A stretch of DNA of 61,743 bases, counting the filler, from Hausera hauseri (taxonomy: Eukaryota), in NCBI GenBank assembly GCA_046269625.1. It is 11 parts of 11 records of this genome, joined end to end, with 100 filler letters (N's around TTAATTAATTAA, not from the genome) between each part and the next. Parts side by side here need not be neighbours in the genome. Positions count along the whole stretch, not along the records: positions 31,842 to 36,093 come from JBJURY010675217.1; 10 more parts are not named here. One strand, written 5' to 3'. Each line of letters starts with the position of its first letter. Position 1 is the first letter of the stretch. Of this stretch, positions 1-55,332 are shown in pieces. The notes beneath the pieces are model-generated. The model was not told where the DNA came from, ran no database searches, and saw only the letters and a list, made by a program, of their open reading frames with translations. Position numbers and translations under genes: made by a program.

Positions 1-1650
1 TAGAACATCCAATAGCTTATGGTGGACGCTCATTAAAGAAAGCAGAAAAGAATTATTCGGTTACCGAACTGGAGACACTGGCAGTTAAGGAAGCACTACG
101 ACACTTTAATGTCTATGTTTACGGACAGAAGATTATAATAGTGACAGATCACAAAGCCGTTACAACACTGAAAGGACAAGCTAATAACCCAACATGCAGA
201 TTAAACCGTTGGATTGAGGAAATCTCACGATATAATATTGAATTTCAATACAAACCGGGTAAAAAGCACGTCGATACTGATGCACTGTCAAGGTTAAAAA
301 CAAAAACGAGTGCGATCACTATATTAAAGAGACTACAACTTGAAAGCTGATTGAGCGACAAAGAACTCTAATATGGGACAAGACAATTAGAATTACGGCT
401 GATCAGGCTAAAGATACTGTTATTCAGCAAATTATCGAGTTCGTGCGAAACGACAAAATACCAAAAGGACGTCAATTAAAAAAGCATCTGCAGAAACACG
501 GACATAAATATTATGCATCGGATCAAAATAATATTTTGTATTACGAGCGGAAAGGGAAAAGACTAATCGTTATTCCAAAAGGATTACGTATCGAAGTACT
601 CATGACCGAACATGATTTATTTTTAGCCGGACACATGTTTTGGAAGAAGACATTAGAAAGAATACTAAATAAATACTATTGGCCAAGCATCTATATTGAT
701 GTACAAAATTGGGTAAGAGCATGCAAGGTCTGCGCGACAAAACAAAAGAAGACGAAAGGCTACGTAGCAGAATTAAAACCTATAAACGTAACAGACAGGC
801 CTATGCAAGCCATGCCTATGGACATAGTAGGACCGTTACCAAAAACTCACAAAAATAACAGATGTCTTAACATATGTACATCGACTCACACACTTTGTTG
901 AATTTGTGGCACTATTGGATCAAAAGGTAGAAACTCTAGCCGACGCAGTAGTAAGAAAAATCATCTGCAGATACGGAACACCAGAACAAATTTTAACGGA
1001 TAGAGGAAGGAACTTTACGAGCGAATTATTCGAAAAGATTGCTAAAATATTTAAAATTGAACGTTTAACCACTACAGCATACCATCCCCAATGTATTGGA
1101 ATGGTCGAGCGAATGAACGCAACAGTTATTCGAATATTATCAACAGTAGTGGCAAAGAACCAAAAGGATTGGGATGAATTCTTAGAAGGAACACAATTCG
1201 CGATTAATACGACTCCACATCCAGCAACAGGATTTACACCGTTCTTTATGATGTATGGACGAGAGGCAATCTTACCTACCGATCTAGGCATGACGCCATA
1301 CGACAAAAATCTCGAAGAATTAGAACAAAATTTTGCCGAAGTTTTACAGACAAGGCTACAGAAATGTTGGGAAGTTGCGAAAACGTTATCACTAGAGTAC
1401 CAGGAACAAGTTAAAAAACAATATGATAAGAAGATCAAACCTCATGATTTGGAAAAGGGAAACTGGGTTTATATACATTATCCAGTTGCGAAAAAAGGTA
1501 CATCCTTGAAATTAACACGTACCGGAAGAGGACCATATGAAATCATCCGGACAACACCAACTACGGTTTATGTCAATAAAAATGGTAAAGAAGAAGTCGT
1601 ATCAATTCAAAGAGTAGTCAAAACAGATATAAGGCCAGCTAAACATTACA
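1..1650 (+). pseudogene. pol: Gypsy pol fragment: RNase H, integrase zinc-binding domain, catalytic core and GPY/F C-terminal module (frameshifted)
   Basis: NYSVTELETLAV..TDHK (RNase H); H..GH...C..C zinc motif; MDIVGPLP, ILTDRGRNF, TTAYHPQCIGMVERMN (DDE core); GPYEII. Confidence 0.95.
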
Positions 1651-3101
1651 ATCTAAGGCCACGAGAGAACAAGACCTCGTCAATTATCACCAGACCGATA
1701 TCATACGTCCAGATAATCCTAGCATTATCGCTAATCACCTCTTATATTCCAAAAACACAAGCTGGAGGGTGGTACGACAAATCCACCTTAAAGAATGGAT
1801 ACGAAACGCAGAAGAATGAGATTGATAAAATAGAAAAGAAACCAATATTAGAAGAAACCCAAAGACAAAAAGATATCATGTCATTACAATCAATCACAGT
1901 TCAATATTATTCACCGAACTCTTCATGTGTTGGATTTATTATACACAAAAGATACTACGATGCTGGAAGAATTCAAATCGACCTAGATGATATAAGGACA
2001 AAAGAAACAAACAGTTGTGACTTCAGACATAAAGAGCGCACGTAATGTTGCAGCACGGAATTTGGTCATACTTACAACCTTACCTATATGCTATATTCAG
2101 CAAAATTATCGGAGATTTATGAAGTAAAACCGCAATTTCAATTAGTTATTCGTGCTTGGAATAAGCATCATGGGATAAAGTCCAACGAAATGCTCCAGTC
2201 CATCGATGTGGTAAAGCGAATGTTAGAAGAAAATATCGCAAATATTTCGGAGAACCCCAAGGACAATTGTGTTCAAGTAAAAACAAAAGGACGACTAACT
2301 AACGGTCGAGTAATCCCACTACGGTTCCTGAAGGAAAACATACAAGCTCACAATCAACAATATTGCCAAATTGACGTCGGGCAACCAACAACATGTTGTA
2401 AGTTACCCCGAAAATATGATTATAAGATTCAAATGGATTTGTATGAAGTCAGACCAAACCAGTCGAATATTTATTTAGGAAGCTACAGACTCAGAAATCC
2501 AGTTAAGTCGCATTTATTTAATATGGCAACGAATGCGGAAATGAAGCCCACTAATCCGGCACTGACCAGAACTACTTCAACAAATAGATCATCTCAAAAA
2601 GAACTAGAAACAATTCCGGTAAAATACTGGACACAACAGCGTGAAATAACTTTTGTGGTATAAAAAGTACTTGATTACTACGTGAAAATAAGTTGTCGAA
2701 CATCATATAATAATCAAAAGGTAATATTGACAAAAGGTAGCGGTAGAATCACATGTACTCACTTGAAGCCTGAAATGGATTATATTATACAAGTAAAAGC
2801 AGAGAACAGACAAAGTATAACGTTCACGGTACGAACCTTAAACGAAATGGTCTAAATGAAATCATTAAACGATGACGAAACGGATGGTGGGATGACAACT
2901 ACGACTAAAATAAAAAGTTTAACTGAACCGACAACTTTGTCGTTAATATCGATTATTGGAACATCAGTGTTCGCTCTCATAATCTTAATTGCGTTTTGTC
3001 GATTGATTACCAAAAACTGCTATAATAAACGCCCTAAAATCTATGAGAGGGAATTAAGGGTGATGGTACCACAGAATGAAATAAATGATGGAATATCCTG
3101 A
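1651..3101 (+). pseudogene. In-frame extension of Pol: signal-peptide-like segment, Cys-rich/FN3-like ectodomain repeats, transmembrane helix, short tail
   Basis: ORFs 906, 2088 and 2856 share one frame, separated by single stops; YVQIILALSLITSYIPKTQA signal; ITCTHLKPEMDYIIQVKAEN FN3 signature in 2664-2852; TM LISIIGTSVFALIILIAFCRLITK. Confidence 0.7.
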
Positions 3102-19621: not shown

Positions 19622-21598
19622 TCACCCCCAACCGTTGCAAAGTGAAAACTGTGAAGGGTAAAAAAGAAAGAGAAAAAACAGCAAAACGAAAAAGTGTCTG
19701 TGTCAGTCGGTCTTAGTGTGGACAAGACGTTGGGTGCCTTCTATAAATTTTTCCCTGCTATACTTGCTGAATGTGACTCTGCGTGTTTTGTTTTTATGCT
19801 GTGTGTTTGTTTGCATAGGTTGAGGTTGGGGAAAAATGGTCGGATTTTATTGTGAATATTGTATCGTGCGAAGAGGAATCAGAATGAAGAGAAGTAAAAG
19901 GTAAAAAAGGAAGAGAGATTGTTGAAGACGAAGGAATGATTGAAGGTGTAATGGCGGATAAAGGAAGAGAAAGAAAAGTTGGAGTAGAGGTTGGAATTGA
20001 ATTGTATGAGAGAGTGGAAGTAGATGATGAAACTGAAGTAGTAGTAAAGAGAGAAAAAACGATAGAGAAAGAGGTAAAGAGAGGAGGAAGTTGTAAAGCG
20101 AGAGTGAAAGGAGTATATGATGTGTGAGGATAAAAGGAGGAATAAAGCGCCGAAGATGGTGAAGGTGTGGAAGGAGAAGGAGAGAGAGACAGAGAAAACG
20201 GTGAAGAGGTACAAGGCAAAAGAGAGCGAGGAGATGGAGAAGGCAAAGGAAATTAGTTGAAAGGTGATGTGTAAGAGGTTGGAATGATGAAAGGTGTAGA
20301 TTTAGAAATTGGTGAATTAGAAATGGTGTTTTATGGAGGGAGTGCTGTGAAAGGAGAAAGTAGGTTGTTTTTAGGGTATGAAGGAGATGGTGGAAGGCTT
20401 GAAGGTGCAAAATCGGACGGAGAGAAAGAGACTGAAATGTGAGAAGAAATTGAAGTGGAAGTTTTGGGAGAAGACGTAAGGGAAAGTGTATTAAGACATT
20501 GAGCAGAGATTGAAGGTGAATTGTTGAATTGCTGCGCGTCGTATAAAGTGTTGGTGTAGAAGTGGTTTTGACGGGAGACGTGTCGTCAATGAAGAAGGCC
20601 GGTTTAGCATTATTAATGTGAACGGTTACTTCTTTGTCCTCTTTAAGAATGATGATGTTGTGAGAGTGTAAGCGAATTACTTTGTAAGGGCCAACATACT
20701 GAGGTTGAAAGCCACACGGCGTCTGATTTTTTAACCAAGCGAACTTGGCAGTATATAAATCGTCGGGTATGTAGGGTTTATTTGCGTGTAACAATCTGCA
20801 AAATGAGTCTTTGCTGATCTCAACGAAGTGTCTCTGTGCTGCTTGTATGGTTTCTTCTGTAGGAGTATTGTTCAGCTCAGTTAGCTCGAATAATGATCTG
20901 ATAGAAGTGCCAAATAATGCTTCTGCAGGTGAACAGCCTGTAGAAGTTTATGGTGTGTTCCTCCAGCCAAGCAGAACGTACGGAAGGAGTGTGGTCCAAC
21001 TGCGATTAGACTCAGCAAGAATTTTAAGAGACGTTTTCATGGTGCGGTGAAAGCGTTCGAGAAGGCCGTTCGATTTGGGATGATATGGTGATGTGTGAAT
21101 GTGATTAATTCCAAATCGATTGACAAGAGCTTTAAACAGGTTGGATTCGAACTGTGGACCTTGGTCCGAAATGATGTGGCCAGGTGATTCAAACCTGCTG
21201 ATCCAAGTGCGGATGAAAACGTCTGCGATGGTCTCTGTGTTGGTGCTATGAAGCGGGACAGCTTCTGGCCATCGCGAGGAACGGTCCATCATTGTGAGGA
21301 TGAACTGATGACCGTTGTCTAAGGGTAATGGGCCTACGAGGTCAATGTGTACAGATTTGAAACGAGACGTGCAGGGAAAATGATATAGTGGTGGCTTTAG
21401 GTGCTTAGTAACTTTGTATTTTTAGCATGCCACACACTGTGTAACTCATGCCTGCACGTCAGAGCGCATCGACGACCATACTACTTGGCGTTGTAGAAGG
21501 CGAAAAGTGGCCTTGGAAACAGGATGATGCAACGAATGTACGCTGTGGAACGCTTCCTTTTGAAGCGACTCAGAAAGAATGATTTTGGGATTATTAGG
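19325..21598 (-). mobile_element. 3' part of a Gypsy element: integrase, Ser/Pro/Thr-rich pyrimidine tract, PPT and LTR
   Basis: HIDLVGPLP, DRSSRWPEAVP, ISDQGPQF, YHPKSNGLLERFHRT, YVGPYKV; GGGGG tract before TGTGGTGCCC at 19621. Confidence 0.9.
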
Positions 21599-21766: not shown

Positions 21767-22891
21767 CTAAAATTTCGTTTTTGTAAATATTTTTGCGCTA
21801 ATTCGTTGATTATTTATAATTGTGGGAATACATGGAATTGTTGGTGCTTTCCTTTCGATTCCTGTTACCGTACATCGCCATATAGCATTTACGACGCGGA
21901 ACATAGCAAATATTAGTGAATATTCCTGGTTAGGTCGTGAAAATATGCAGGTTGATTGATTATGTTCTCTGGAGTAATGAATGTTATTACTACTGATGGA
22001 TATACCAGCATATCGAGTGGTTATTTGCATTACCCTACCTTTTGGTATTTTTCTATCCCATTCAACTAAGAGGCGTTGCTTTTTGTAATCAGGTTGGCCT
22101 ATAAATATTTTTTCTTCTAAGAACAATCTGTATATATTAGTTTGCTTTTTGTGTTCAAGTGAATTATCCGTCAGAGATATCGTAACTGTCTTCGGTTCTG
22201 CGGGTATCACTATTTCAATTGTCTGATTTTTGGTGAGGGGTAAATCCTTACTTCTTGATGTATGTATTTGCACGGAATAAATAGATCCAGGGGTAACTTT
22301 ACAACAGTTTTCTTTGTGTGTGGATGTATACGTACATATTATCTTTGATCTTCTGTAGAAGGTTAATGTTCCCCATTGTTCCTTTACTGATTTATCATTC
22401 GTTTTATTCTGTTTAGAAGAAAATTTTATAAATAGACACTTCTTTCTATGATTGTACTGGATAAGGAGGTTTCCTGGTCTGGTTTCTTGGATATCCCATG
22501 GTTCTGTTTTCGGATTTCTTTTTAGATATTTCATAAAGTCTGAAAATATATCCAATGCTGTCCGATTGAGCAAGTTTGTTGTCATTTTCTGAGGATTTAG
22601 AGTTAGCTGTGTTAATAAAGTCAGTATACAGCAAACTAATATACTCAGTGGTACAATCATCCGATGAGGTTTTGGGCAATTTCCAATTCGCATTTGATGG
22701 GAATTGGCGTGCTTTCTAGTCTGTCGACGTCTTCTGATATATAGGATTAATGTTGGTATAACTATAATTATAACGACAAAAGGGAATATAATAATTATTA
22801 GCAATAATGACCTAAAATCTTGACTTATTGTTATATTAGGCAATTTATTCTTTATCAATATTTCGTTTTCGATAGTTGTTGTTTGAACCAT
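21767..22891 (-). CDS. Membrane protein: TM helix, second hydrophobic segment, Cys-rich/FN3-like domains
   Basis: LLLIIIIFPFVVIIIVIPTLILYIRRRR; IVPLSILVCCILTLL; KCLFIKF..ICTYTSTHKENCCKVTPGSIYSVQI. Confidence 0.55.
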   Translation of the reverse strand: MVQTTTIENEILIKNKLPNITISQDFRSLLLIIIIFPFVVIIIVIPTLILYIRRRRQTRKHANSHQMRIGNCPKPHRMIVPLSILVCCILTLLTQLTLNPQKMTTNLLNRTALDIFSDFMKYLKRNPKTEPWDIQETRPGNLLIQYNHRKKCLFIKFSSKQNKTNDKSVKEQWGTLTFYRRSKIICTYTSTHKENCCKVTPGSIYSVQIHTSRSKDLPLTKNQTIEIVIPAEPKTVTISLTDNSLEHKKQTNIYRLFLEEKIFIGQPDYKKQRLLVEWDRKIPKGRVMQITTRYAGISISSNNIHYSREHNQSTCIFSRPNQEYSLIFAMFRVVNAIWRCTVTGIERKAPTIPCIPTIINNQRISAKIFTKTKF

Positions 22892-29473: not shown

Positions 29474-30885
29474 CGGGTTGATTTCCCTCTTAATTTTATT
29501 TAATCGACACCAATACATAGGTATTTTCGGTTGATTCGAAAAAAAAATTGAATAAATTCTTTCTTTGACTACAACGAATATTTATAGTTAAATGAGTAAG
29601 AGCTATATTTGCAAAAATGACTAAGAGTTAAATAAATGTTTGACCAACTGTTAAATGTAATTTCCATCTTTATCAATGACGTTACATAGATGAAAATTAT
29701 TATTCATGGAGCATTATTTCCTCCGTTAATGTTGACAACTGTTTATTTAAGAAGTTTCTAAGTTCTTGTACCGAATCAAAGGACATTCTACATCGCTTCA
29801 TTTCTAAGTCGGGAAACACCTTACGATCTAGGACATTTATATCAGGAGAATACGGACTTTGCTTCACAATGCGACAATGTTTGCGTTCAAGAAACTTACG
29901 TGTCGCAGCTGACACATGTTGGGGAGCATTACCATGCATTAATATAAAATTTCCCCACAGTATATTTCTCCTTTGCACGACATCATATTTATTAAAAGCG
30001 GTGATAACTTTGTCAAGAAAGTTTATGTAACATTTAGAATTGACTGTTTCTCCGTGTTCTAAGACTTTCAAATGATACAATCCTCTAAAATTGACTGCAA
30101 CAAAGCAGTGAAATTTTGTGCCAACAGCTTTTCTTTTTGACATTTCAGTCCTGTCACTATAATGTGGGACCCAAGACTTCCTTGTGATGTGGTTTCCGAT
30201 CGGATAAGCATAAAAGGCTTTCTCGTCCGTAACTACCAGATACCATGTAATATTTCTGTTGTGTTGGAAAACGTCTAAGAGATCCTGACAACAAGTGATT
30301 CATTGCTGTTTCTGTTCCTTATTTATTTTGTGAGAAATCCATTTTTCTGAAATGCATGACCAATTAAGATCTTCTGTAATGATTCTTAACACCATTGCCT
30401 AGGACAATCCTAAACGATCTTCTACCTCTCATGTAGTCATTTTGTTATCATCAGAAAGGAAAGCTTCAATTTGACCGGCAAACAACTGTCTTTCTTCACA
30501 TTTCTTCCGCCCGCTTCCTTCCTTTCTATTGAAGTTTTCCCTGGAATTGTCTTTAAATTCTTTACAAATTTGCTGAACTCTTCGCAACTTTATGACATTT
30601 TCACCCCTTGTGGTTATGATAACGTTATGAAAGTCTGTACCCTTGTAATTATTTCTTCTTAGGGTTTCAATAACAACATAGATTTCGTTACTTGAAGGTT
30701 TCAAACTTTCAATTAAAATCAGATAAAATTTCAATATAAAAGCAAAGCAAACAAACCTTTAGGATTTCTTGAAACGATAATTCAAATTTTTCGACATCAC
30801 TACGTGATATTTGATTTATTAAAATAAAACATTTATACTTATGTATTTTTGTCGACTAAATAAAATTAAGACTGAAATCAACCCG
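29474..30885 (-). mobile_element. Full-length decayed mariner (DD34D spacing) with TIRs and TA flanks
   Basis: TA|CGGGTTGATTTC...GAAATCAACCCG|TA; LVVTDEK, LMHGNAPQH, PYSPDINVLD with 34 residues between second and third catalytic positions. Confidence 0.9.
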
Positions 30886-30909
30886 TAATAAATTAATCCA
30901 AAATCGAAA

Positions 30910-31741
30910 AACTGAGCTGTTATCGTACCAGAAACTTGCAGATTGATTCAAATACTGTCTACCAAATCATTCAACGACTTAAGTTGTGAGGTTTATTGTC
31001 ACATAAACCTCATAAAACAGGGTCGAAAACAAATGTTAAAGATTCGAGCAAAACGTGAGGTTGTTCGGGAAGCGTCGAAAGCTCCATTTAAAAGTTCCAG
31101 CAAGTTTGCCGAAATAGTTCAAACATACTTCCAGAAAAAGTTGCCCTCAGAACTATCCGAAAAGTACTCAACCAAGCTGGACTACGAGGATGCACAACCC
31201 GAAAGAAGCCCTTTATTTCAAAAATCAACAAAGCCAAGAGACTAGCTCTCGCAAAGAAGCACATAAGCAAACCTCAGAGCTTTTGGAATAGTATTTTGTG
31301 GTCTGACGAAACAAAACTTGTTTTGTTCAGACTGGCAAAAATATCTGGAGAACAGCAAATCAAGCAGTGCTTCCAAAACACCTCATTCCAACTGTCAAAT
31401 ATGGAGGAGGGAACGTCATGGTTTGGAGGTCGATGGCTTCCAATGGTGTCGGTAAAATGGAAATTTTTTATTTCAGAATGGATTTGGAGCATAACATCGC
31501 AATTCTGGGTAGAAATGAACAGAAATCTACTCAAAAGCTCCAGATAGGGAGAAAACATGTCTTCCAACAGGACAGCGACCCCAAACGCACCTCCAAAAAG
31601 GCACAGCTTTTCTTCAAAAACAAAAAGTTACGGTTCTTGGAATAGTCTTAGAAAAGTCGCCAGATTTAAACCCCATCGAACATTTATAGGGAATTTTAAA
31701 GAAAAGCGTATATGGTGTTCCTCCATCAAACCTGAATCAAC
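30910..31741 (+). mobile_element. Tc1 (DD34E-type) transposase remnant
   Basis: ILWSDETK, PTVKYGGGNVMVW, FQQDSDPKRTSK, SPDLNPIEHL. Confidence 0.9.
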
Positions 31742-31841: not shown

Positions 31842-32447
31842 AGTTGCAAAAACCAATGGAAGCTATTACGAATGTTGGAGCATTTGGAACTAGGGTGCAA
31901 GTAAAAGACTTAATTAAATGTGAGACAAAAGTCTTTAATCAAAAATTGGAGCAAGAATTTAGAATAGCCGATGAACTGGTGGCTGAAGCTATACTTGGTT
32001 GTGATGCACTAGCAAAGTTAAATGATATGTGTATGAACTTAGAAACCCAACAAATTCAACCATATCGAAAAACAAGGAATGAGAAAAAAAAATATAGTAT
32101 CAATTGAAGATGATATGTTAATAACAGCTAGAACAGAAATTGTACTCAAGGCATTAGTAGAAGGCCGAGACGAAGAAGACGTATATATCGAACCAAATAT
32201 GATTTTTATGGACAAGAATGAGCTATAGATAGCCCATACCATTGATAATATTCGAGAACACCAAGTGGTTGTTCGGATAGCTAACGTTTCAAATAAACCA
32301 AAATTATTGAGAAAAGGGACAAGAATTGCCTATGTATATTTGATAAAGGATATAGGTAACAATGCTACGGAAGCTATTATTTCCACTGTACAGGAATTAT
32401 CCGAATTTATGGAAAGACAATGACAAAAACCACGAACAGAAGCCTGG

Positions 32448-35015
32448 ATGCGATTAGAAAGTAAATCAATGAATAAATTGCAAAGTCATCTTAACAAAAA
32501 CAAAAATATAACAAAACTTGTCAAGACTCCTACCATATGGAATGATTATGACCTGTTCGGTAAAGATAGTACATTGACTGATGCGGAAAAAGAAGGTACA
32601 ATAAAAATATTACAACAATATAAAGATACCTTTGCCATCGATGAATATGATATGGGTATTATACCCGTCATCAAACACGAAATTAAACTGAAGACTGGAA
32701 TGGAAACTCCAATTAAAAAGAGGCCATATCGGCTTAACTATGACAAACGAGAAAAGGCTAAAAAAATAAAAGCCGAAATGAAACAGCATGACATAATTAG
32801 ACCAAGCAACTCACCATGGACAGCACCTATCGTGATGGTACAAAAGAAGGATGGGTCCATTAGAATGTGTGTGGATTATCGTGCTTTGAACGAAGTAACG
32901 GTAGACAATACCTACCCGTTACCGAGGATTGACGAAATATTAGACAAGCTGAAAGACAAAATGTTGTTTACCACGTTGGACTTACAAAAAGGTTTCTGGC
33001 AGATAGAAGTACAAGAAGAGGACAAACAGAAAACAGCCTTCGTGACGGCAGACGGACATTATGAATTCAACCGGATGGCATTCGGAATGAAGAACGCCCC
33101 GGCAACTTTTCAAACAGCTATGGATATAATTACCATGGATGCTCCACACATAATGTGTTATGTGGATGACGTTATAATTGCGTCAGCTGATTACAAACAA
33201 CACAAGGAACATCTTAAGGATATGTTGGAAAGATGTGCTCTCTTGGGAATTAAAATTAGTTTAAAGAAATGTTGTTTTGCCCGAACTAAAGTTGACTTTT
33301 TAGGCCATACAGTAAGTAGAGATGGAATTAGTCCACAAATTGGAAAAATCAACAAAATCCAAGACTTTCCAGTTCCAAAGACTGTTAGAGGAGTTCGAAA
33401 ATTTCTTGGCCTTACAGGCTATTATCGTAAATTTGTTAAGGACTATCAACAGATAGCTTCCCCTCTACATTCATTACTACAAGAGAATTCCAAGCTTGTT
33501 TGGACCCAAGAGTGTCAAAAAGCATACCAACAATTAAAGGACTGTTTATTAACTCCACCAATATTAGCGTACCCTAATATGTCAAAACCATACTTTCTAG
33601 CAACGGATGCAAGTAAAGTCGGAATTGGAGTAGTCCTGTCACAAAAAGATGATCAAGGACAAGAGCACCCCATATCATTTGGAGGAAGGAAGCTGAGGAA
33701 GCACGAAAAAAATTACTCTACAATTGAGAGGGAACTGCTTGCTATCGTCTACGCGTTAGAACAATATGGCCAGTATCTATCTGAAACAAAACCAATTATT
33801 GTTTATACTGACCATAAGCCGCTACAATGGTTAAAAAGCCATAAAAATCCAAATAGTCGCCTAATGAAATGGGCTATGTTACTTCAACCCTACGATTTGA
33901 AGTTTGAATATAAAGCTGGTAAAGCTAACGCAAATGCTGATTATATGTCAAGGATATCTGAGGATATAGATCAAAAAGATAAAGAGATAACAGATAAACC
34001 AGGGGCCATAGAAGCCATTTGGAGTATAACAGAGCAAGAAAAATCGCTACAACAAAGACAGCAGAATGATGAACAGGTAAAGCAAATTAAGGAATACCTT
34101 CAGAAGAAGATTGTGCCAAAGAATAATGATCTCTACACCCATTTGACAAAATTTGCTGAAAATTACCAGATAAAAGATCGTATATTATATTATAACCATA
34201 AAGGAAAATGTGTCGTCGTTGTTCCCCAAGAAGATATAAAACTTTTGTTAATACAATACCATGATGGTATGTTGGGCAGACATCACTCAAAGAAACGGAC
34301 TTTAGGTCGATTGAAAAGAAAATACTATTGGTATAAAATGTCCAAAGATGTAGAAGAATGGAGCAAAAGTTGCCCTATTTGTGCAACGCGAAGGAATACG
34401 GGCTCGAAAATTAAGGTTCCTTTGAAACCATTAGAATGCCCACCTGCCCCTATGGAGTTCTCAGCCATGGACATTCTAGGACCGTTGCCAATGACTATAA
34501 ATGGGAATAAGTACATGTTGGTTTTTGTTGATTTATTTTCCAGATGGCCCGTAGTAGTTCCGATACCAGACCAAAAAGCACAAACTATTGCACAAGCGTT
34601 TGTTGAAGAGATTGTATTCAATTATGGAGCACCTACTAAACTACTAACAGTTCAAGCTCCAAATTTTATAGGAGAAGTAATGGCGGAGATTTCGAAGATA
34701 TTCCATATATTACAGTTAAAAACTACCCCATATCATCCACAAACTAATGGAGCGGTCGAGCGATTTAATGGAACCTTAACCAACATGCTTGTAACTATGG
34801 TTAATGAACGACAGGATGACTGGGATGAATACATCAAACCATGTTTATTCGCTATAAGGAATACAATTCATCCTGCGACAAAAGAAACTCCGTTTTATTT
34901 AATGTATCTTAGAGATACGCACATGCCAGTTGATATAGATTTTAAAATGCCCCTGTCTCATCTAAAGGACATGGAGTATAAAGAATTATTAGAAGAAAAA
35001 CTTGGATATGTGTGA
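32448..35015 (+). CDS. pol: Gypsy Pol: reverse transcriptase, RNase H, integrase
   Basis: RMCVDYRALN, YVDD, TDASKVGIG, TDHKPL, MDILGPLP, YHPQTNGAVERFN; frame continues after a single TGA. Confidence 0.97.
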   Translation: MRLESKSMNKLQSHLNKNKNITKLVKTPTIWNDYDLFGKDSTLTDAEKEGTIKILQQYKDTFAIDEYDMGIIPVIKHEIKLKTGMETPIKKRPYRLNYDKREKAKKIKAEMKQHDIIRPSNSPWTAPIVMVQKKDGSIRMCVDYRALNEVTVDNTYPLPRIDEILDKLKDKMLFTTLDLQKGFWQIEVQEEDKQKTAFVTADGHYEFNRMAFGMKNAPATFQTAMDIITMDAPHIMCYVDDVIIASADYKQHKEHLKDMLERCALLGIKISLKKCCFARTKVDFLGHTVSRDGISPQIGKINKIQDFPVPKTVRGVRKFLGLTGYYRKFVKDYQQIASPLHSLLQENSKLVWTQECQKAYQQLKDCLLTPPILAYPNMSKPYFLATDASKVGIGVVLSQKDDQGQEHPISFGGRKLRKHEKNYSTIERELLAIVYALEQYGQYLSETKPIIVYTDHKPLQWLKSHKNPNSRLMKWAMLLQPYDLKFEYKAGKANANADYMSRISEDIDQKDKEITDKPGAIEAIWSITEQEKSLQQRQQNDEQVKQIKEYLQKKIVPKNNDLYTHLTKFAENYQIKDRILYYNHKGKCVVVVPQEDIKLLLIQYHDGMLGRHHSKKRTLGRLKRKYYWYKMSKDVEEWSKSCPICATRRNTGSKIKVPLKPLECPPAPMEFSAMDILGPLPMTINGNKYMLVFVDLFSRWPVVVPIPDQKAQTIAQAFVEEIVFNYGAPTKLLTVQAPNFIGEVMAEISKIFHILQLKTTPYHPQTNGAVERFNGTLTNMLVTMVNERQDDWDEYIKPCLFAIRNTIHPATKETPFYLMYLRDTHMPVDIDFKMPLSHLKDMEYKELLEEKLGYV

Positions 35016-35299
35016 AACCTAGCTTCACGACATATAAAAATATGCCAGAAAGAATATAAAAATAGATACGATGAGAAAACGAAGTCCCATGGTTTCAAAC
35101 CCGGAGATAAAGTCATGCTACATACGCCGTTAAATAAGAAAGGCAGAACACCAAAGTTGGACAGACCATATAAAGGTCCATATATGGTCCAAAAAGTAGA
35201 CGAAACGAATATCTATTTGAATAAAAACAAAAGGAACAAGATAGACCCGATAAAAGTCCACGTAAACAGGTGCAAGCCAGCAACCACAGAATCAAGGAT

Positions 35300-36093
35300 T
35301 AGAAGTGGAAATCCTAATTTATTATTAGTAACAACGTTTATGGTATTGAGTTTAGTGACTTGTGCATCAACTCAGTCTCTCGATGTCAAGTATAAAGCTG
35401 TTCAAATCGGAAAATACCCATGTGTAAAAATTACAGCCAACCGGAACTTAACAATAGATGAATATATACATATATTCATATCAAAATTACCTATTGTGGA
35501 AAAAGCGACACCAGAAAATTGTGATTTATACCACAATCATTCAGTACATATTTGTTGTGGACTTTCATTTGGAGAAACGTATAGAATTCAGTACGCAATT
35601 GGAAAAAGTGATCACGGTTATATAACATATTTCTCTTTCCCAGGTACTACCCATTACTTCCATCGACCATATTTTCTTATTTCATTTTATTCCAAGGTCA
35701 TGAAAAATGGACCTTGCATAACAGCAGAACCAGACGTACAAATCACGAAGTATGTAACATTCCAATATGAAATATTCGATGGCACTAACAACACATATTG
35801 TAAACCAAATTACCAAAATCCATATGTGTTGTCCAATTATTTTTAATAAATAGTATATGATATACTATTGGACCACGTACAATGGTTATACATGGTCAAA
35901 AACAGCAGATGGACCCGAGATAATAGTAAGATCCCCGGTAAAGATAACCCCTACTTCAACAAGAAAAGCAACTACCTTGGTGACACAATCAAGTATACTA
36001 ACTACATTACATAAAATGGTAACGAGTCCCACCATGGAACCTAAGAAGAGAATCAAAGAACTAGACATAATTATACAACCAACAAATTACTCA
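35300..36093 (+). pseudogene. Signal peptide, Cys-rich ectodomain repeats and Thr-rich stalk fused downstream of integrase
   Basis: LLLVTTFMVLSLVTCASTQ; PCVKIT..NCDLYHNHSVHICCGLSFGETYRIQY; TPTSTRKATTLVT. Confidence 0.65.
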
Positions 36094-40687: not shown

Positions 40688-40729
40688 AATTGTTATTCCA
40701 TATATAATCCAAAGTGAATTTTCACCTCC

Positions 40730-40918
40730 TTGGGAAAAGAATGTGCCATTTGTTTGAGTGAATGCTCAATGGACCAAATAGAATTAATTACAAGTAAGCA
40801 TCAATTCTGCCGTCAGTGCATAAAAGGATGGTTTGCACCTGAAACCTCTTGTCCAAAGTGCCGCACTAACATTAAATTATTCCAATATGGAAATAACTAT
40901 TATACTGTAAAGAATTGA
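40730..40918 (+). CDS. RING finger protein, C-terminal fragment
   Basis: CAIC..SKHQFCRQC..W..CPKCR (one ligand Cys reads Ser). Confidence 0.75.
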   Translation: MGKECAICLSECSMDQIELITSKHQFCRQCIKGWFAPETSCPKCRTNIKLFQYGNNYYTVKN

Positions 40919-41153
40919 TAAATAAAATTTTAGTATTAAAATTTTGTGATGTTATAGAGTATATTGTATTTTAGCTGAAATGCAAAAGGTCAAAAAACTG
41001 TAATTCCAAACACCTAGACAGTATGAATATGTCAGACCAGTACAATCTAATACAGTACAATATATATTACATTATCAGAATAGACAATTCGGACCAGCGT
41101 TATTTATTAAAAGACAAATAAGTTACTCCAAGGCTATAGTATTAGATAACTCT

Positions 41154-42197
41154 ATGAGAGATACACAAAACAGAAAGATATCGTTTTTAAAATACCGAAA
41201 TGCGCCTATTCCAGAAGAACTAGCACAAGCATATGTTAAAACCGGATTATACAGAACTACAACAGGACAAATTAAATGCATTTATTGCCAAGGAAAATTC
41301 CAATATAAACAAACGAAAGATCGACAAAATGAAATACATAAGAAATCACATGCTACTTGTCCTTATTTATTAAATCTCGATATCAGTAATATACCGTTTA
41401 TAGATACTTTTGTTAAAAGACCTGATTCAGATAAGGATACGAATTATGACACAACAATGTCAGTAAAAATAATTTACTCAACGGATAATACAGTGAAAGA
41501 AAATGTATATTGGATTTCAAACACAGTGCAAAAGAGAAAATTAACCTTCAATGGAAAAAGAGAAATTGAATATCTAGCTGAACAAGGACTAATATTGATA
41601 TCTAAGGAAGAAAAACAGTATGTCAAATGCACTATATGCTTAAAAGAAACGTACTGGTTAGAAAACCCCGATCAACGATGTCCAAAAATATTACATACCA
41701 ACAAGTGCGAATATTCAGCAAACAGAACCTTCGATAATCACACCAAGAGACAATGCAGAATACAATTCAATATCGGAAAACTATATGAATGTTACCAAGA
41801 TAATTTAGCAGCTACATCAGTGATATCCAGACATCCTACCAAACGAGAAAATATTCTACAGTACATTAAATATCGGACAGAAACTCAGTTGGACTGGTCG
41901 CCAAATGTATTCGAACTATGTCAGAATCTAAATTTTATCTCCCCGGAGAAAGAAAGAAAACACGAACGAAATATTCTCAACAACCTTTATCTGCGTGGTC
42001 TAGAATGCGTGATTTGCTATGTGGATGTAGCACAAGTCATTTTCTTGCCTTGCGGTCATTTGAAAACATGCGAGAAGTGTTCAAATAGAACAGCGAATTG
42101 CCCAGTTTGTAAGAGTATTATAGAAAGACAAGTGACGTATTTTCAGTTTTCAGAAGAAAATAGTGAAATAACTCTGACAGATATGGGCCTTGATTAA
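41154..42197 (+). CDS. Inhibitor-of-apoptosis (IAP)-like protein: BIR, divergent BIR, RING
   Basis: BIR1 CIYC-x16-H-x6-C exactly; BIR2 LAEQG..CTIC..H..C; IAP-type RING CVIC..VIFLPCGHLKTCEKC..CPVC. Confidence 0.9.
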   Translation: MRDTQNRKISFLKYRNAPIPEELAQAYVKTGLYRTTTGQIKCIYCQGKFQYKQTKDRQNEIHKKSHATCPYLLNLDISNIPFIDTFVKRPDSDKDTNYDTTMSVKIIYSTDNTVKENVYWISNTVQKRKLTFNGKREIEYLAEQGLILISKEEKQYVKCTICLKETYWLENPDQRCPKILHTNKCEYSANRTFDNHTKRQCRIQFNIGKLYECYQDNLAATSVISRHPTKRENILQYIKYRTETQLDWSPNVFELCQNLNFISPEKERKHERNILNNLYLRGLECVICYVDVAQVIFLPCGHLKTCEKCSNRTANCPVCKSIIERQVTYFQFSEENSEITLTDMGLD

Positions 42198-42337
42198 TAA
42201 CCAATATAAATTTAATTGAATAAATGTTATTTAGTTCATATGAATTTGTTGTGATAAAATTGAATAAATTTATTGTAGAATTACCGGTTATCAACAGTAT
42301 GACTCTAATCAACCTTAGTGAGTAAACAGTTCAAGTA

Positions 42338-42787
42338 ATGAAAATAAAGAATCAACCACCTAAATTAGGATATCAATGGTACAGATTGTATAATAGCTCT
42401 GTACTCAACAAGATAACCGAATTGGGATACTCGAAATATTTGGCAATGATTGCTATTAAAACTAATGAGAAAGCAGAATACGAAGCATCACCAAAAATGA
42501 TTACCTATATATACCAAGTGCAATTAATGGATAACAATTACTATCAAGGAATTTAATATTTGATTTCAACATTAAAAGAAAAAGAGAAAAAAATAAAAGA
42601 AAGATGCATAGACCTTAGCCGTGCAGTTTGGATTTGTGTAAGTTGTAGAAAAAGTCAAGCCAATATATTTTACCTACCATGTGGACATATTATTCATGTA
42701 AGATTTATGTACCTAAAGGTTCCATGTTATCAAAATGTGCTATATGTGAATTGTCCATAGACGAAGTGTGTACTATATACATATAAT
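42338..42787 (+). pseudogene. UBA-like, coiled-coil and IAP-type RING (IAP C-terminal half without BIR)
   Basis: KITELGYSKYLAMIAI (UBA-like); CVSC..IFYLPCGH..CAIC with a stop and a frameshift. Confidence 0.65.
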
Positions 42788-42790
42788 AAA

Positions 42791-45420
42791 ATGGATAATA
42801 ATCTAGTCTTCCTTAATAACAATGACGCAGGGACACCAGTACAACACTCGATCCGAGGATGACTGGCACAGGGTCAATCAACAGCAATTAATGAGATTGC
42901 TTTAGATGAAGGAAATATTAGCCCTACTAAAAGTTCGGATACGTTGAGCACAACATCCGCCCCAGGAACACTAACTGATATTGATTCATTACAATTGTCT
43001 CCTGCTGCGATACAACATCAATGGGTAAGAGGAGTTAATGGTCGACGAAGGCCATCCCGAGAGCAATATCGTAATGCATTTAACTCACGACACTTGACGC
43101 AGAGAATAACTAACCAGGAATTAGAATGCCGAACACGTTATGAAGTATATAATATAAATGTAAATGATCTCAGAATAAGACAGAATCGAACGTATGACAG
43201 TATACAACAACTAATTGAAGAAATACAAGATATACCCCGACAAGGAGGAGGAGTTGCAATAGAAACAGATGTTATAAATAATGGTATAAGATTGGACGAA
43301 GTCGAATGAAAAATCACCCAAACAGAGCAAAAAGTGAATAATAATAGTATGGGTTTAAACAAATTGGGTGCGAAAACTGGTCAACTTGCACAAGAGGTTA
43401 GCATCTATTCTAGACAAATGCGTGATATTCGACAGCAAACTATTGAACATATAGCTGCATTATATAGGAATAGAGAACAGATAGATAATAACGAAAGACA
43501 AGTAAGGCAAAGGATAAACTATATGCAAAATCAAGTAACAATTATAGTAAATGAACAGGACTAAATTCAAGAAGGAAATAACTGTACTAGAAACCAAATA
43601 GAAACGTTGCCGCGAGATATAGATCGATTGAATGAACGTCTTGAGCAAGTAAGGACAGAGGAAATAATAGCCCAACGTCAGGAAGAAGTACGCACACCCG
43701 AATTCTCAGTAGAGGTAGGTTCAATGTCTTGTGAAACCTCCGATATCAATAGCAGCAACATGGAGCCACAAGGAGATAATCGAGGGCCAATGGCTCATTT
43801 AAACGGATATAACTGCGACCCTAACAATAATAACGCGGCCTACGATTTACCAAATTACAACGAAAGGCGAAGAGAAGAGAAATATCAAACACTTCCTCGT
43901 CTTCAACCATATGAAGGACGCATATCGGACTTGGAATATTTCCTGGACTAATATGAATCTCTGGCCACAGCTATGCATTGGAATGATGCCAAGAAAATAT
44001 CACTTCTATTAGTGCATGTGAATAAGGATTTAAGGATGGCAATAACGCGTCTACCTCCACGAGTAAACGAAACTTGGTTGCAACACAGAAAAAGGATTTT
44101 ACAAAATCAGCAGGTCAATATATAAGAGAAACGATATCTAAAATTTCAAAATTGCAAACAGAAACCAAACGAATAAGTGTTGACTTATATTAATAGATTT
44201 AAAACAGCAATGAGTAGATATTTTAGCCATAACGCAAACACCTTTGGTGCCATGATTATGAAACAATTTGTACTTGGACTTTTACCACCCTTAAGAGAAG
44301 GAGTTAAGTTCCATACTCTTAATAACATTAACGAATTGATAGACTATACTAGAAAAATGGCAACACGGATAGATGAGATACCCTTATGGACTGATCAAAC
44401 GCAAATAGCAGCAGTGGCTACAACATCATTATTAGTTAGACCAGATGTACCAAATCGTAGTAATTCACCTTGGAGAAATTCTTCAAGAAGTCAAAGTCCT
44501 AATCGTCAAGGTACCAATACCCCACAGCGAAGTAATACTCCAGAGAGAGGAAGCTTTAACCAGTCATCCAGAAATTACAATCAAAGAGACACACAATACC
44601 AGCAAAGTAGGGGAAATTACAATGATCGACAGCGAAACGATAAAACACGAGGTGATTCAAGAGACAAAAATGACAACAGAAGTCGATTCCCTAGTACAAA
44701 AAGATATAGCAACGACCAAAACTTCGGGCGTTACGATTATAGAAACCCATTCTATAGACGAGATGGTAATTGAACACGATACCCAAACAACCGTTAAGAA
44801 GAATCAAAATCTAATTATTCTAACGACAGGCGAAGTGAAAGTCGTGAAAGGTTTAGAAGAGATGATAGTCGAGAAAGATATAATAATTTTAATAGAAACG
44901 ACAGTAGAGAAAGGAATAACCGGCGAGGTGATAGTAGAGAAAGAAATAGCTTTAGAAATGACAATAGAAGTGGGTATAATAATTCAAGATCAGGAAACTA
45001 TAACAGAAGACGTGATTATACTTCATCTCGACGAGAATCGGATAGATATAATAGAAATCCTATTCCATACCCTTCAAGAGATCAAAACCGAACTCCTTCC
45101 CCCAGATCAAGTAGCGATAATAATAGGTATACTCGATCACCGGACTACAGTTCCAGACGAAATGAATCATCGCCAAATAGAACTACCTCCACATTCAGGT
45201 ATAATAGGAATGTGACACCAGAATATTCCAAAAATTTCAATAAAAGGAAAGTGGATTCAACAACGCCATCTTACAGCAATCCTTAAAAAGAAAAAGGAAA
45301 TTTATCAGATAATAAGAAAAGTAATAACGACGAACGAAATGTCTCACCTCGTCGTTAGGTAACTTTTAATGAACAAACTAAATCAGCCTTTACGGGCTTA
45401 GTAATAGCAAAACCCATAAT
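42791..45420 (+). pseudogene. gag: Gag: coiled coil, retrotransposon capsid domain, long Arg/Ser/Asn/Asp-rich tail
   Basis: One frame from ATG 42791 with about ten premature stops; PYEGRISDLEYFLD*YESLATAMHWND, CKQKPNE*VLTYINRF, QFVLGLLPPLR. Confidence 0.8.
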
Positions 45421-45559
45421 GGAACACCATCAAGTTACATCCAAACCACCAACCAATAGTTCTATACTGGAAAAACCCTTCATAACTAGAAAGCATTTGG
45501 ATCAGGCAGAACGGAAAGTACCAGATATTCAAAGTAATACACTCCCATACATGTTATGG

Positions 45560-46830
45560 CCAGAAACTAAAGAAATCAAAAATTTACTTTTGACCTTTGT
45601 AGCAATAGATAAAATTAATGAAGAAGCACAGGAACCCAAAATTAACCGAATAAGAATAGACAACATTGAAGATGATTTGATAATTGAATTAAAGAATGTA
45701 TATCTGGAAAAAGAAAAACACTATGAAAATCTTAGACAATTATTCTGTGGAAAACTCATAGTCGGAATAGAATTACCATGGCTATTTAAAGAAATACAAT
45801 TAAAAGAAACTGATATCTTTGGTACATTCAGTGTAGACCAGAATTTTAACTTACCAGATGATTAATGGGAAAGAGAAAGTACATTACCACAACAATTAAA
45901 TAATTTACGAAAGAGTACAAAACCAAACTTAGTCGTCAAGGATCTCCATATTTCATTTTTCCAAGCAACCCTTCGTACAGGGACGACGGACGTCCCGAAC
46001 ATAAAATAACATTTAATACTACCCTAATTCCAGAGGCAGTACTAGAGCGCATGGACATGGATATTGTTCAGAAATGGGATAAACTGTTTGTAGACAAGAA
46101 AACTAACCGAATAGAGTTCACGGACATCACCGAACAAGGACCAACTTGCATGGAAGGGATTGATAAAGTCTACCTTAAAAGGACTGATATTCGAATCAGA
46201 AGAAATGACCAGCCATGTGCTATAATTACCAATCAGGGAAAAGCTCGATTGAAAATTAATGATAAGATGGTAATAGTTTCTAAGGAAACTAAGATACTCC
46301 CTAATTACCCCTATGAAGGAGACTATCAGATTCAACCTTTAGGTGATTGCCCGATATACTTAATACAATTATTTAAGGAAACACCCGTGTTAATTGTGTA
46401 CGAACCCGTGAAGCAGGACAAAGAGATAGTTCTCACTGGTAGATGTATAACTAAAGGAAACCAAAAGGGACTTGCTCAGGTTACAGCTAAAAACTTAGAA
46501 GGAGAAATAATACTTAATAATCATGTATATCCAAATATACCAGATACTACAAAGTATACTGAATAGAGTCGACGGTCTAATCTCCAACGCCAAGAGTCGG
46601 TAAGTGAATTTATGAATAAGTATTTGCCAGGAAATATAATCATCGGACGATGTTTACGAGAGCTATTAAACACTTTGAAAATAAATTACGTAAATTTAAC
46701 CGCTATTTATGATTTGGAGCAAACTAACAAAAAATACAAATGTTTAGGCTTATATAATGGTCATAACTTAGAAATTATGGCACAAAGATGTCAATACCAA
46801 TACCTAAAGACAGTACGAGTGGAATACAAT
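45560..46830 (+). pseudogene. Two degenerate DEDDh (REX4/ISG20-like) exonuclease domains
   Basis: FVAIDK..NRIRIDNIEDDLI..QLFCGKLIVGIEL and LAQVTAKNLEGEIILNNHVYP..YLPGNIIIGRCLRELLNTL..IYDL. Confidence 0.55.
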
Positions 46831-47427
46831 GTGGCATGGATAATAGAAAGCCAAAATACGTTACGAATAGCCTTTCCAGCAATAGACGAAATGGAGAAAA
46901 CTGAAGAAGCTAGAGCAATTTCAGGAATTGAACCAATCGCTCAAAGACATCCGGATATGGATTCCGACGAATATTCACACGAGTCTGAGAGAATTAGACT
47001 AACCGGGGAATGGATAGACCAGTATGATGATAGATTAGTTGCACCAATTACCCAACCGAAGGTTCTGCCCCAACGACCAACATAATTCGAAGATATCCGA
47101 GATTCAATACAACCCAGTATATCTAAGAAGGAACCTCAGATAATGGACGATGAAACATATGAAATCTTAGATGCTGATATTATATCTATATCAGATACGT
47201 TCCATTATTTCGGAAATACATTATCACCAGTTGAAAACCCAAAGATTATTCCGGAAGTGAATATTCCACCAGGATCTATAACATACGGCGAACGCTCGGA
47301 GTTAGTAATAGAAAAAATTACAGCTAAATTACAAATGACTGATCCAGCACCCAATGAGGTATGGGATGCTTTATGACAATATGAGACACAGCCATTAATC
47401 AATCGAATAGAATGCGAACCATTACTT

Positions 47428-48486
47428 ATGCCATTGACAATGGATGATATATTTTGTTTCTTAGCTGCAAGAAAATTATTAAAGACGCTAGGAAGAGAGT
47501 TAAGACGAAAACACCAAAGAAAACCACCGTATATAATAAATATAGAAATTAAAACCAATAAACGCGAACAAATAATTAAAGTAACAACGGGAATGTTTAC
47601 TAAATTCACAGACCTTCGAAGAAAGGTACTAGACGAATTAGATCTCGAAACTAATATAATAGCAAAAACTAATTTTTATGGCAGATTAGCCGTTGACAAT
47701 GATCATGTTGTGGATTATGGACTACTTACTGGAAAGATCTACCAGATTACTATGGAAATAGTCAATAAGAAAAGGGGAGGAAGATCGAGGAAATGTGATT
47801 TTAACCCAGTAAGTGACGATGAAGAAAAACCTGAAGAGGAAGAAAAACCAGGAAGGCAAAGAAAGAGAAGACATTTGTCACGAAAACGTAGGGAACAACA
47901 GGAAACAGTAGAAGATATATTATATGACAAATTCCAACGATTTACCATTAGTGACGATGAAAACGAACCAACACAAAATCCAATTTCAGGAACATCAAAC
48001 CAGAGTGACGTAAATGTACCAAAAGTGACATTGACAACTCATGAACTTCTAGAACAGTTAATTAAGAAAGCAAACCCAAAACAACTTAAGAAAATACCAG
48101 CAATTACAACAATTACACTACTTTCCATAATAGAAACTGCTGGAAACTTTTCGTCACAAATCACAAGGTTATTACACAAATACGAAATGAAAGGAGGTTT
48201 AAATAAAGCATTGACACGGTTATTAAAGGACTGTGATCAGAATCGATTATTGATGGCTTTTGGATTCATAGTGGTTAGTTTTAAAAAACAAACAGCGATC
48301 GATGCTAAATTACATCACACGATAAGGGAATTAGCCTATCATATGGATGAGCTAACAAAAGATTGGGTAACAAAACATGGTGGTTGGGATGAAATCCTCA
48401 AGAAATTCGATCCCACCACATTAATATATCCTAAGAATACCAATATCTCTTGGTGGTACAAATCATTCACTTGCTACTATACTTAA
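47428..48486 (+). CDS. BH3-like motif, ubiquitin-like domain, basic/acidic linker, Bcl-2-family domain
   Basis: LKTLGREL; INIEIKT..FYGRLAVDNDHVVDYGL..KKRGG (47536-47781); BH1-like DQNRLLMAFGF; BH2 DWVTKHGGWDEILKKF. Confidence 0.8.
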   Translation: MPLTMDDIFCFLAARKLLKTLGRELRRKHQRKPPYIINIEIKTNKREQIIKVTTGMFTKFTDLRRKVLDELDLETNIIAKTNFYGRLAVDNDHVVDYGLLTGKIYQITMEIVNKKRGGRSRKCDFNPVSDDEEKPEEEEKPGRQRKRRHLSRKRREQQETVEDILYDKFQRFTISDDENEPTQNPISGTSNQSDVNVPKVTLTTHELLEQLIKKANPKQLKKIPAITTITLLSIIETAGNFSSQITRLLHKYEMKGGLNKALTRLLKDCDQNRLLMAFGFIVVSFKKQTAIDAKLHHTIRELAYHMDELTKDWVTKHGGWDEILKKFDPTTLIYPKNTNISWWYKSFTCYYT

Positions 48487-48819
48487 TAGCTGTAAGCAGC
48501 TTGAATACGACAAAAGCATAAGAAGATTATGATTGTTCCCGACCAGAAATAACAGACACACTTTCATTAATGAATATAGGTAAGTGCCAGAACGCGAATC
48601 CGATATCAGTGAAAAAGAGGGTCCTTACGATTATAATTTGTATCAGAGAATCAGTTATGAACAAGTGCAAGTAAAGGAATGCCAGGTTAATAAAGTAATA
48701 TTCGCTTACAACTGTGGTCGTAATTTATGGAATTCAGTGATTATTCCATTAGGATTACCTAAACCTGTAACAATAACGGCCGAAAATTGTAGGAAAGCCA
48801 CAGATTGGATTCACATAGA
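48471..48819 (+). pseudogene. env: Signal peptide and N-terminus of a chuvirus-glycoprotein-like envelope protein (cut by contig end)
   Basis: LLLYLIAVSSLNTTKA*EDYDCSRPEITDTLSLMNIGKC / YNLYQRISYEQVQVKECQVNKVIFAYNCG..ITAENC. Confidence 0.65.
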
Positions 48820-50171: not shown

Positions 50172-50910
50172 TTATATTAATTGATATCGAGTCCATGAAG
50201 CAGATGAATTTGCAAATCTCAGTTGCAATGACTGATCTGTATAAATGTTCAACATGCAGCTATTGGTACTTATTTGCATGAAGGCACTTTTACAATATGG
50301 CTGCCTGTTCAAACACCTAAAAATTATAACTTAACTTTGTTAAGCACGAATTATTAGCTTACTTAAAGGTACAATACATTGGAGACACGTCAGAATAAGT
50401 CTCCAATAAGCCTTCTTCAGCGTTATTATTCACAACCATCGATGATGGTGACAATTTTATCATTTGTGATACAACCTGGTTCAATACACAAATGACGTCT
50501 ACAGAATGTGGTGAAGTACACGACCAATCACATAAACCAGATGGAGACACATATATGATGCAGTCTTGTGGTATGGAAACGCCGTTCAGTTCACCTGAAG
50601 GCCAGTACGTAGTCTGTGTAAAAATTGACCCATCAAAATTCAGCCATCCATTTTTATCATAGTTTCGTTCATTGACCAAATCTGATATGCCTACATAAAA
50701 ACGGTTAGCCATCCAATTCAGCTGTTTTATGTTATCCAAATCTGGACCATTGGGTAATTGACCATTCATAGTTTCACAATATCGCGCAGCATCCCATGTA
50801 GTCATTGATGTTACTGAATTTCTTTTATAATATGTTTTACCATTAATAATCGATGTAGCTGCATTGGATAACCCAACTAAACAGAGAAACCAAAAGAAAG
50901 TATCAACCAT
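50172..50910 (-). CDS. Secreted C-type lectin + PAN/apple domain protein, two exons (50910-50363, 50316-50172)
   Basis: Signal peptide MVDTFFWFLCLVGLSNA; CTLD (YC..GQL, FYVGISD, W..GELN, QDC, DWSC, VIC); 46-nt GT-AG intron; exon 2 CLNRQPYCKSAF..SCML. Confidence 0.8.
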
Positions 50911-54937: not shown

Positions 54938-55332
54938 CCTAAATTCTTATCTACCGGCATTTGCCTTCAATTTAGCACTGATGTTATAATTGCACTAGCT
55001 ATCAAATTATTACACATTAACATCCCTTTAATGCCGCCGTGACTAGCGACGACATCACGCGCAATACATAGTGGACAATACACTAACCAACTTAATGCAC
55101 TCCAGAAGGGTGCGACAAAATGAACATCTGATTTAGATCCAATGGAGTGGTAATAATTGTAGTATTACTTTTACAGTCAAGCATAGCAGTTGACTTTGCA
55201 CTGAAAATTAGTTATACGAGTAGGGGACATAATTGAGCGATGCTAACTCTAGTTGAACTAGTTAAGAAGTGTGGATAAATTACCGAGAGACATACAATTA
55301 GTGGTAGTCTTGAGATCGTGTGACAATAGACT

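Follow-up and report, generated by a model that had tools for sequence, protein, structure and literature searches.

Two decayed Ty3/Gypsy elements, A and B, were found in a 61,743-nucleotide stretch of DNA from Hausera hauseri (the window), and in both of them the Pol frame continued past the integrase. On balance, we favour the reading that A and B are copies of a likely Burro-like Gypsy clade in which the Pol frame runs into a predicted type I glycoprotein, which would be freed by signal peptidase and would probably be a partner of Env. The predicted cassette would comprise an internal signal, one to three FN3-fold domains, a stalk, a TM helix and a short tail. We hold with high confidence that the frame is continuous, that the repeats are homologous, that the layout recurs in 16 of 17 relatives and that these elements form a clade. 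The window consists of 11 unplaced contigs of 4–8 kb each, joined by N-TTAATTAATTAA-N spacers. Element A is contig 1–6771 and element B is contig 31842–36093; since they are on different contigs, they are separate loci.

Pol frame and extension of element B

The Pol of element B (32424..35012, + strand) contained, in one frame, an RT (32838–33314; Pfam RVT_1, E 1e-37), an RNase H (33579–33893; RT_RNaseH, E 3e-38), an integrase zinc finger (34221–34397; Integrase_H2C2, E 3e-16) and an integrase core (34446–34739; rve, E 1.5e-9), all on the + strand. The C-terminal part of the integrase with its GPY/F module followed at 35016..35273 (+), as read from the sequence, with GPY at 35175–35183. The order RT-RNase H-integrase, together with the GPY/F module, identified element B as a member of Ty3/Gypsy (Metaviridae). 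The element is cut by the contig end at 36093, and its contig contained no LTR, TM, tail, Env or Gag.

An in-frame TGA (35013..35015, +) lies between the integrase core and GPY, in the C-terminal part of the integrase. This position is coding in element A and in the relatives described below, and at this codon 98–100% of the contig depth in three of three public runs was unlike the window sequence. Programmed readthrough was ruled out, because the site is inside the integrase and other copies differ there; the breaks in element B are copy-specific decay. Across 35100–35960, the length differences listed for other copies were confined to the site where the window itself loses frame. Their overlapping contigs, none of which spans the whole, tiled GPY, signal and repeat B1 without gaps or a listed indel. 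The variant analysis displayed the 40 best-supported places, with 143 more in its list. Among these 40, 38 preceded the frameshift, and 24 of the 38 were third codon positions; within the extension, third positions accounted for 14 of 26 variant places (p 0.025, among the same 40). This pattern and the gap-free bridging contigs indicated that element B comes from a family that is present in multiple copies and whose extension is coding.

When X was placed at the TGA (35013–35015), the Pol frame ran through GPY, a hydrophobic segment and CVKIT...C...CC...YRIQY (35421–35594). The first-pass annotation, made from the window alone, had described just such a frame, passing one TGA and continuing through GPY and a signal-like segment into a cysteine repeat, and we confirmed it; the C-x9-CC spacing that it gave for B is actually 10 residues. 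Signal segments were called by hydropathy and pattern. That of element B (35319..35363, +) had a mean hydropathy of 2.39 over 15 aa, compared with a best value of 1.65 within its own Pol, and no Met was present between GPY and its start. A hydrophobic segment occupied the equivalent position in element A and in 16 of the 17 relatives.

Repeat B1 (35367..35657, +), a predicted FN3-fold beta-sandwich with four cysteines (C, C, CC), was defined by alignment, profile and model. A second repeat, B2 (35658..35930, +), begins in the frame that stops at 35846. Its frame shifts near 35820, a stop occupies 35851–35853, and its CC..Y.I.Y is in the next frame at 35827–35868. A Ser/Thr-rich stalk (35931..36093, +) was translated in the shifted frame and is cut by the contig end. 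By hydropathy, a putative signal, ectodomain and stalk are present up to that end.

The annotation had also held that the repeat of B matches both of the repeats that it saw in element A. Pairwise, the alignment of B1 was significant with A1 (z 6.8, with 0 of 2000 shuffles scoring as high) and not significant with A2 (z 0.9); most pairwise repeat alignments were singly insignificant. When 66 contig frames were searched with a profile built without B, from A1, A2 and two domains of the protein P0121, B1 was recovered at E 3.8e-5, and no reversed control scored better than 0.16. With X at its breaks, B2 was recovered by the profile without B at E 2.1e-5 (24 test sequences). The motif occurred 4 times in the window against 0.115 expected, a count made post hoc. 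An Env or fusogen identity for the extension was rejected: no Env family, F-type or gB-type, was matched in the extensions of A and B or in P0121. A word search with the B extension among proteins of 627–1995 aa gave 0 of 115 candidates.

Element A, its intact orthologue and a third locus

Element A retains an integrase core and GPY module (831..1697, +; Pfam rve E 8e-8), with 38% identity to the integrase of B; its contig contained neither RT nor Env. Its cassette (1698..3101, +) was delimited by alignment to P0121 and by hydropathy. On the + strand it consists, in order, of a signal (1698–1742), repeats A1 (1881–2150) and A2 (2229–2510), an S/T-rich linker, repeat A3 (2604–2843; Pfam fn3 E 9e-4), a stalk, a TM segment (2943–2999) and a tail. 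No Met precedes the hydrophobic core. The cassette is interrupted by stops at 2043, 2661 and 2832, and the one in A1 (2043–2045) falls immediately ahead of CC.

P0121 aligned with this cassette at 29% identity over 460 aa (E 1e-60) and is free of stops. It is a stand-alone call of 479 aa, with its own Met residues just ahead of the signal and no Pol attached. It emerged from a profile search with four window repeats against 1.84 billion representatives, which gave four matches, P0121 being the only relative among them; the other three (P0122–P0124) were dropped as tandem-repeat proteins. A word search with P0121 and the window rows gave no match beyond P0121 itself. Word and profile searches found no intact Pol fused to repeats of the CC type, and P0121 was the sole intact CC-type protein that they found.

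Behind the element A cassette (window 3367–5400, +) we observed two ORFs, one of them broken, and a RING-like finger that is also broken. The broken ORF matched a DEDD-exonuclease-like ORF that lies behind the polyprotein of locus L001, a relative at the DNA level (E 1.3e-8); the exonuclease-like ORFs of L001 and of a second such locus, L002, matched Pfam RNase_T at 9e-4 and 1.4e-5, respectively.

A third locus contains a repeat C1 and a weaker C2, located by motif and profile behind TM-like and signal-like segments (21860..22480, − strand). The E value of C1 was 0.032 in the search of 66 frames and 6.8e-5 when 24 test sequences were searched; C1 aligned with C2 at z 5.7. No Pol was detected on its contig (21699–26303). 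The contig (− strand) is A-rich and has ORFs without Pfam matches, one of which (22894–21770) bears the TM-like segment, the signal-like segment and the two repeats. Other relics are present at 10227–10870, 14814–16535, 19847–21421, 29700–31547, 50359–51036 and 54938–61743; they comprise an RT fragment and two unrelated Gypsy elements, together with features recognised by eye, namely pieces of piggyBac-like and Tc1/mariner-like transposases and an ORF resembling a C-type lectin.

Relatives, clade and fold of the repeats

Relatives were collected by searching proteins of 1512–4315 aa with the RT-RNaseH of B, and the best 120 of 530 matches were listed. The limit of at least 1512 aa may favour tailed proteins; Env-before-Pol proteins without a tail (P0109 and P0120, outside the clade) were nevertheless also returned. 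The 17 closest long relatives among these best 120 of 530 are unnamed or mislabelled metagenome proteins with 48–54% identity to B over RT-RNaseH. Their integrases were 50–56% identical to that of B (34443–35231), whereas the rest of the listed matches reached at most 38%, and the 17 best BLAST matches of element A were these same 17 relatives. One of them, P0088, is labelled Flavobacteriaceae at NCBI, probably because animal DNA was binned with bacterial sequence. A search of viral contigs with the relative P0084 gave no match.

We then built an RNaseH-integrase tree (493 columns, LG+G4, 31 rows, with P0008 dropped for short coverage), using 12 outgroups from the same search as the relatives. 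Element B nested among the 17 relatives (UFBoot 89), and element A was sister to the group (94) on a long branch; a quick tree of the integrase only had left A unplaced. The single clade, for which an RT/IN phylogeny had been suggested at first pass, was recovered, with A on a long branch.

The relatives are large single-ORF elements. A fusion glycoprotein (PF24664, Env) lies between Gag and protease in 12 of the 17, and the protein calls of the other five start at or shortly before protease/RT. Env is thus a separate upstream domain and not part of the post-integrase extension; for A and B, whose contigs contained none, an Env is presumed from kinship only. CCHC knuckles occurred in some relatives, ubiquitin-like domains in P0077 and P0084, and ankyrin repeats in P0077 and P0091. 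In 16 of the 17, the frame stayed open beyond GPY and encoded, as judged by hydropathy, a signal-like segment followed by an ectodomain, a TM helix and a tail; P0078 had no post-integrase cassette. The earlier proposal of a conserved clade-level architecture accordingly held among the 17 closest long relatives in the best 120 of 530 listed. The arrangement integrase-signal-ectodomain-TM was also present at the DNA level in the single ORFs of L001 (3655 codons) and L002 (more than 3400 codons). No LTR pair was found in either of these sequences, which may be incomplete.

Thirteen of the 17 relatives had between one and three repeats sharing the core C..L.P...Y.V.I. Profiles from which whole subclades had been left out recovered 12 of the 13 carriers at E 0.0013 or below and the remaining one at 0.057; reversed sequences gave no match below E 1, and 0 of the 103 other proteins from the same search matched the repeat profile. 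P0086, P0079, P0080 and P0078 were also without a match. P0079 and P0080 keep the signal-TM frame after the integrase with a different, short, Cys-rich ectodomain.

Several further features accompanied the cassette. An extra aspartic-protease-like domain separated integrase and signal in 9 of the 17 relatives (P0073, P0078, P0079, P0083, P0086, P0090, P0091, P0098 and P0100), with two such domains and ankyrin repeats in P0091. A second signal-repeat-TM cassette lay between protease domains in L002 (E 2.8e-7; ORF 56–10282, about residues 1560–1750, upstream of RT) and in P0076 (residues 48–235). Tails ended in S/T-x-V/I/L, which we take to be a class I PDZ-binding motif, in 9 of 18 proteins (the 17 relatives plus P0121) compared with 3 of 103 others; the tail of element A lacks this ending, and that of element B is missing. 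Of 16 relatives, 8 had a Met within about 30 residues ahead of the hydrophobic core. Asn fell within N-x-S/T more often in ectodomains (84 of 314) than in Pol (74 of 526; p 1e-5), an excess that comes partly from the S/T-rich stalks. A separate example of in-frame cargo after the integrase occurs outside the clade: the Gypsy protein P0105 runs from its integrase through a chromodomain and a signal into a glycoprotein (precomputed match to PF00974) without a change of frame.

The repeats fell into a CC type (B1, A1, A2) and a single-C type. The profile of the relatives matched A3 at E 2e-7 and the third domain of P0121 at 1e-7, but B1 only at 0.27. The chain of homology thus has two significant links, one from B1 to A1, A2 and the first two domains of P0121, the other from A3 and the third domain of P0121 to the relatives. 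Between them, the step from CC-type to single-C repeats is weak in sequence, suggested by register and tandem position only; HH-suite gave the two types a probability of 2%, within the range of shuffled controls.

We modelled B1 twice. The first model (4 rows, seven strands, pLDDT 66) had no match at E of 0.001 or below in the PDB or among viral models and no FN3 among its matches; its best Z, 8.0, was to unrelated beta-sandwiches. The second, an AlphaFold model, used an alignment of 20 rows, and all five models had seven strands and pLDDT 80.6–82.6. As 14 of these rows were of the single-C type, the B1 model may lean on them. It matched FN3 domains in Foldseek at TM 0.63–0.68 (best E 0.0024) and in VIA-align at Z 9.7 (rmsd 2.7, 86 residues aligned), where the list consisted mostly of fibronectin, cytokine-receptor and RPTP domains; matches to fibronectin and monobodies tied with those to cytokine receptors. 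Used as a sequence profile, the same alignment matched 14 PDB sequences, 12 of them containing FN3 (best E 0.007). The Atlas leads were FN3/Ig-like at 0.83–0.88, below 0.9. The Pfam fn3 (PF00041) cut-off of 25 bits was not reached, A3 scoring 19.8 bits; only 1 of the 20 aligned repeats matched fn3 at E<0.1, and B1 matched only Fn3_Dep-1_3rd (E 0.019). Judging from these models, the Cys domain very probably adopts a cysteine-bearing FN3 fold. Of the first reading of the window, then, the architecture stood; it had missed the FN3-like fold, the Burro-like family, the decay at the TGA and repeat B2.

Known elements, possible function and significance

The planarian element Burro has Gag, an Env in frame before the protease and then Pol in one giant element (PMC6431247, available sections), and GAG-ENV-POL errantiviruses with a gB-type Env are reported from Platyhelminthes, Nematoda and Bryozoa (PMC13524379, available sections). 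Like the relatives of B, the giant Ty3/Gypsy elements Burro/GYPSM1 have one very long ORF with Gag, CCHC knuckles and a ubiquitin/SUMO-like domain, followed by an in-frame Env between Gag and protease, ankyrin repeats and PR-RT-RH-IN; the accessible part of their description names no post-integrase signal-FN3-TM cassette, second protease or PDZ-type tail (PMC6431247). A and B are likely Burro-like: their Pol groups with giant single-ORF elements, and the likeness to Burro1 is one of described layout. The host is an animal, and its Burro-like content makes a flatworm likely. A contig separate from that of B (window 40688–48819, +) looks like the 5' half of a Burro-like element, with, in order, a BIR-RING ORF (41004–42197; Pfam BIR 1e-6, RING 1e-12), a Gag-like region (43874–44758), a ubiquitin-like domain (47548–47766) and the start of Env (48441–48817; E 5e-10 to L002), all on the + strand; it also has a RING-like sequence and, by eye, a BCL2-like one.

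In the GAG-ENV-POL errantiviruses Env likewise precedes Pol, and the Env row of a Schmidtea element has motifs in common with the Env of P0084, by eye and unscored; the chromodomain is the only post-integrase domain named in the sections at hand, whereas our relatives have the predicted FN3 cassette (PMC13524379). Cargo downstream of the integrase is also known from LTR elements in which an extra ORF or an env follows pol (PMC6431247). As in an env, a signal and a TM are present in the cargo described here. It differs from theirs, as far as the available text describes them, in sharing the frame of Pol, in a predicted fold that is FN3 and not that of a fusogen and, in the relatives, in being additional to an Env elsewhere in the ORF. 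The word 'fibronectin' had no match in the main texts of PMC6431247 and PMC13524379, and neither 'fibronectin' nor 'FN3' had any in seven supplements of the latter. Giants with Env before Pol are known, and we found no description of an in-frame, post-integrase, FN3-like membrane protein; Grohme 2018, Lee 2026 or their supplements may annotate the cassette.

The cassette resembles type I host receptors with FN3 domains (cytokine receptors, RPTPs) in its predicted fold, a cysteine pattern suggesting disulfides, the stalk, the single TM and the short tail. It differs from them in that no fold match exceeds 21% identity, in lying inside a retroelement polyprotein and in lacking, by eye, the strand-B Trp. 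Receptor-like proteins are also encoded by viruses, as in the interferon decoys of poxviruses and the attachment proteins of herpesviruses.

From layout and sequence features, we consider it fairly likely that the cassette is translated as part of the polyprotein, enters the ER by its internal signal and is released by signal peptidase, with a protease freeing the integrase. PR-RT-RH-IN would lie in the cytosol, downstream of the Env TM. The post-integrase segment would then act as an internal signal for ER entry, and host signal peptidase would cut behind it, giving a luminal, TM-anchored FN3 ectodomain; the integrase would be left with a hydrophobic stub that the element's protease could remove. 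Rather tentatively, we suggest that the protein accompanies Env on the surface of particles or at contacts between cells, that its tail binds PDZ scaffolds and that it helps passage from cell to cell. Its likeliest role might be that of an attachment or adhesion partner of Env, a proposal we make with some reserve, with host-receptor mimicry close behind. A fuller scheme, in which a gB-type fusogen in mid-polyprotein and a captured, terminal FN3 receptor-like attachment protein form a two-protein entry system sorted to cell contacts by the PDZ tail, is a lesser possibility.

Several other explanations were weighed against the Env-partner reading. The same fusion and processing could yield a mimic or decoy of host receptors in cytokine, growth-factor or adhesion signalling, with no role in entry. 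Burro elements bear cargo that modulates the host, BIR/RING and BCL2-like domains among it (PMC6431247, available sections), cytokine-receptor FN3 domains are among the top fold matches, and the PDZ-type tail points toward host scaffolds. A common fold is no proof of function, however, and fibronectin and monobody matches tie with these receptors; moreover, in one polyprotein with Env, the protein would be made 1:1 with it, which would fit a structural partner. We regard a mimic without an entry role as rather unlikely. The cassette might instead be chiefly a cut-and-anchor device by which Pol is held at the membrane during assembly, its ectodomain being a replaceable spacer. The different ectodomains of P0079 and P0080, the second cassettes of L002 and P0076 and the protease-like domains adjoining the signal in 9 of 17 relatives all fit this. 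A hydrophobic segment alone would do for such a device, yet cysteine pattern, fold, sequons and tail motif are kept across subclades with integrases only 50–56% identical to that of B, which makes it improbable.

A separate accessory gene for the membrane protein, expressed from a spliced or internally started RNA and only incidentally open to Pol, would agree with the stand-alone call of P0121, with Met just ahead of its signal, and with the mostly separate env ORF of Gypsy elements (PMC6431247, available sections). We consider it likewise improbable, because no stop separates integrase and cassette in A, B (where the TGA precedes GPY) and 16 relatives, and because a Met ahead of the core is absent from A and B and present in only half of the relatives. 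Chance run-on frames, or unrelated fragments of host genes behind two dead elements, could be suspected from the breaks in both window copies and from the mostly insignificant pairwise repeat alignments. This was ruled out by the intact orthologue P0121, the layout in 16 of 17 relatives and the recovery of repeats in left-out subclades; other copies of the B family also cover the whole region in frame.

Burro-type elements have been considered possible integrated proviruses with anti-apoptotic cargo (PMC6431247, available sections), and PMC13465017 cites a report that one of them supports planarian stem cells. Were the two-protein entry system true, an LTR retrotransposon would divide attachment and fusion between two proteins, as herpes- and paramyxoviruses do. 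The layout points to an LTR element that punctuates its polyprotein with internal signal peptides on both sides of Pol. As a Pfam-negative marker domain, the cassette may serve for finding the clade in fragmented assemblies, and a conserved second surface protein would offer a concrete handle on the movement of Burro-type elements between cells.
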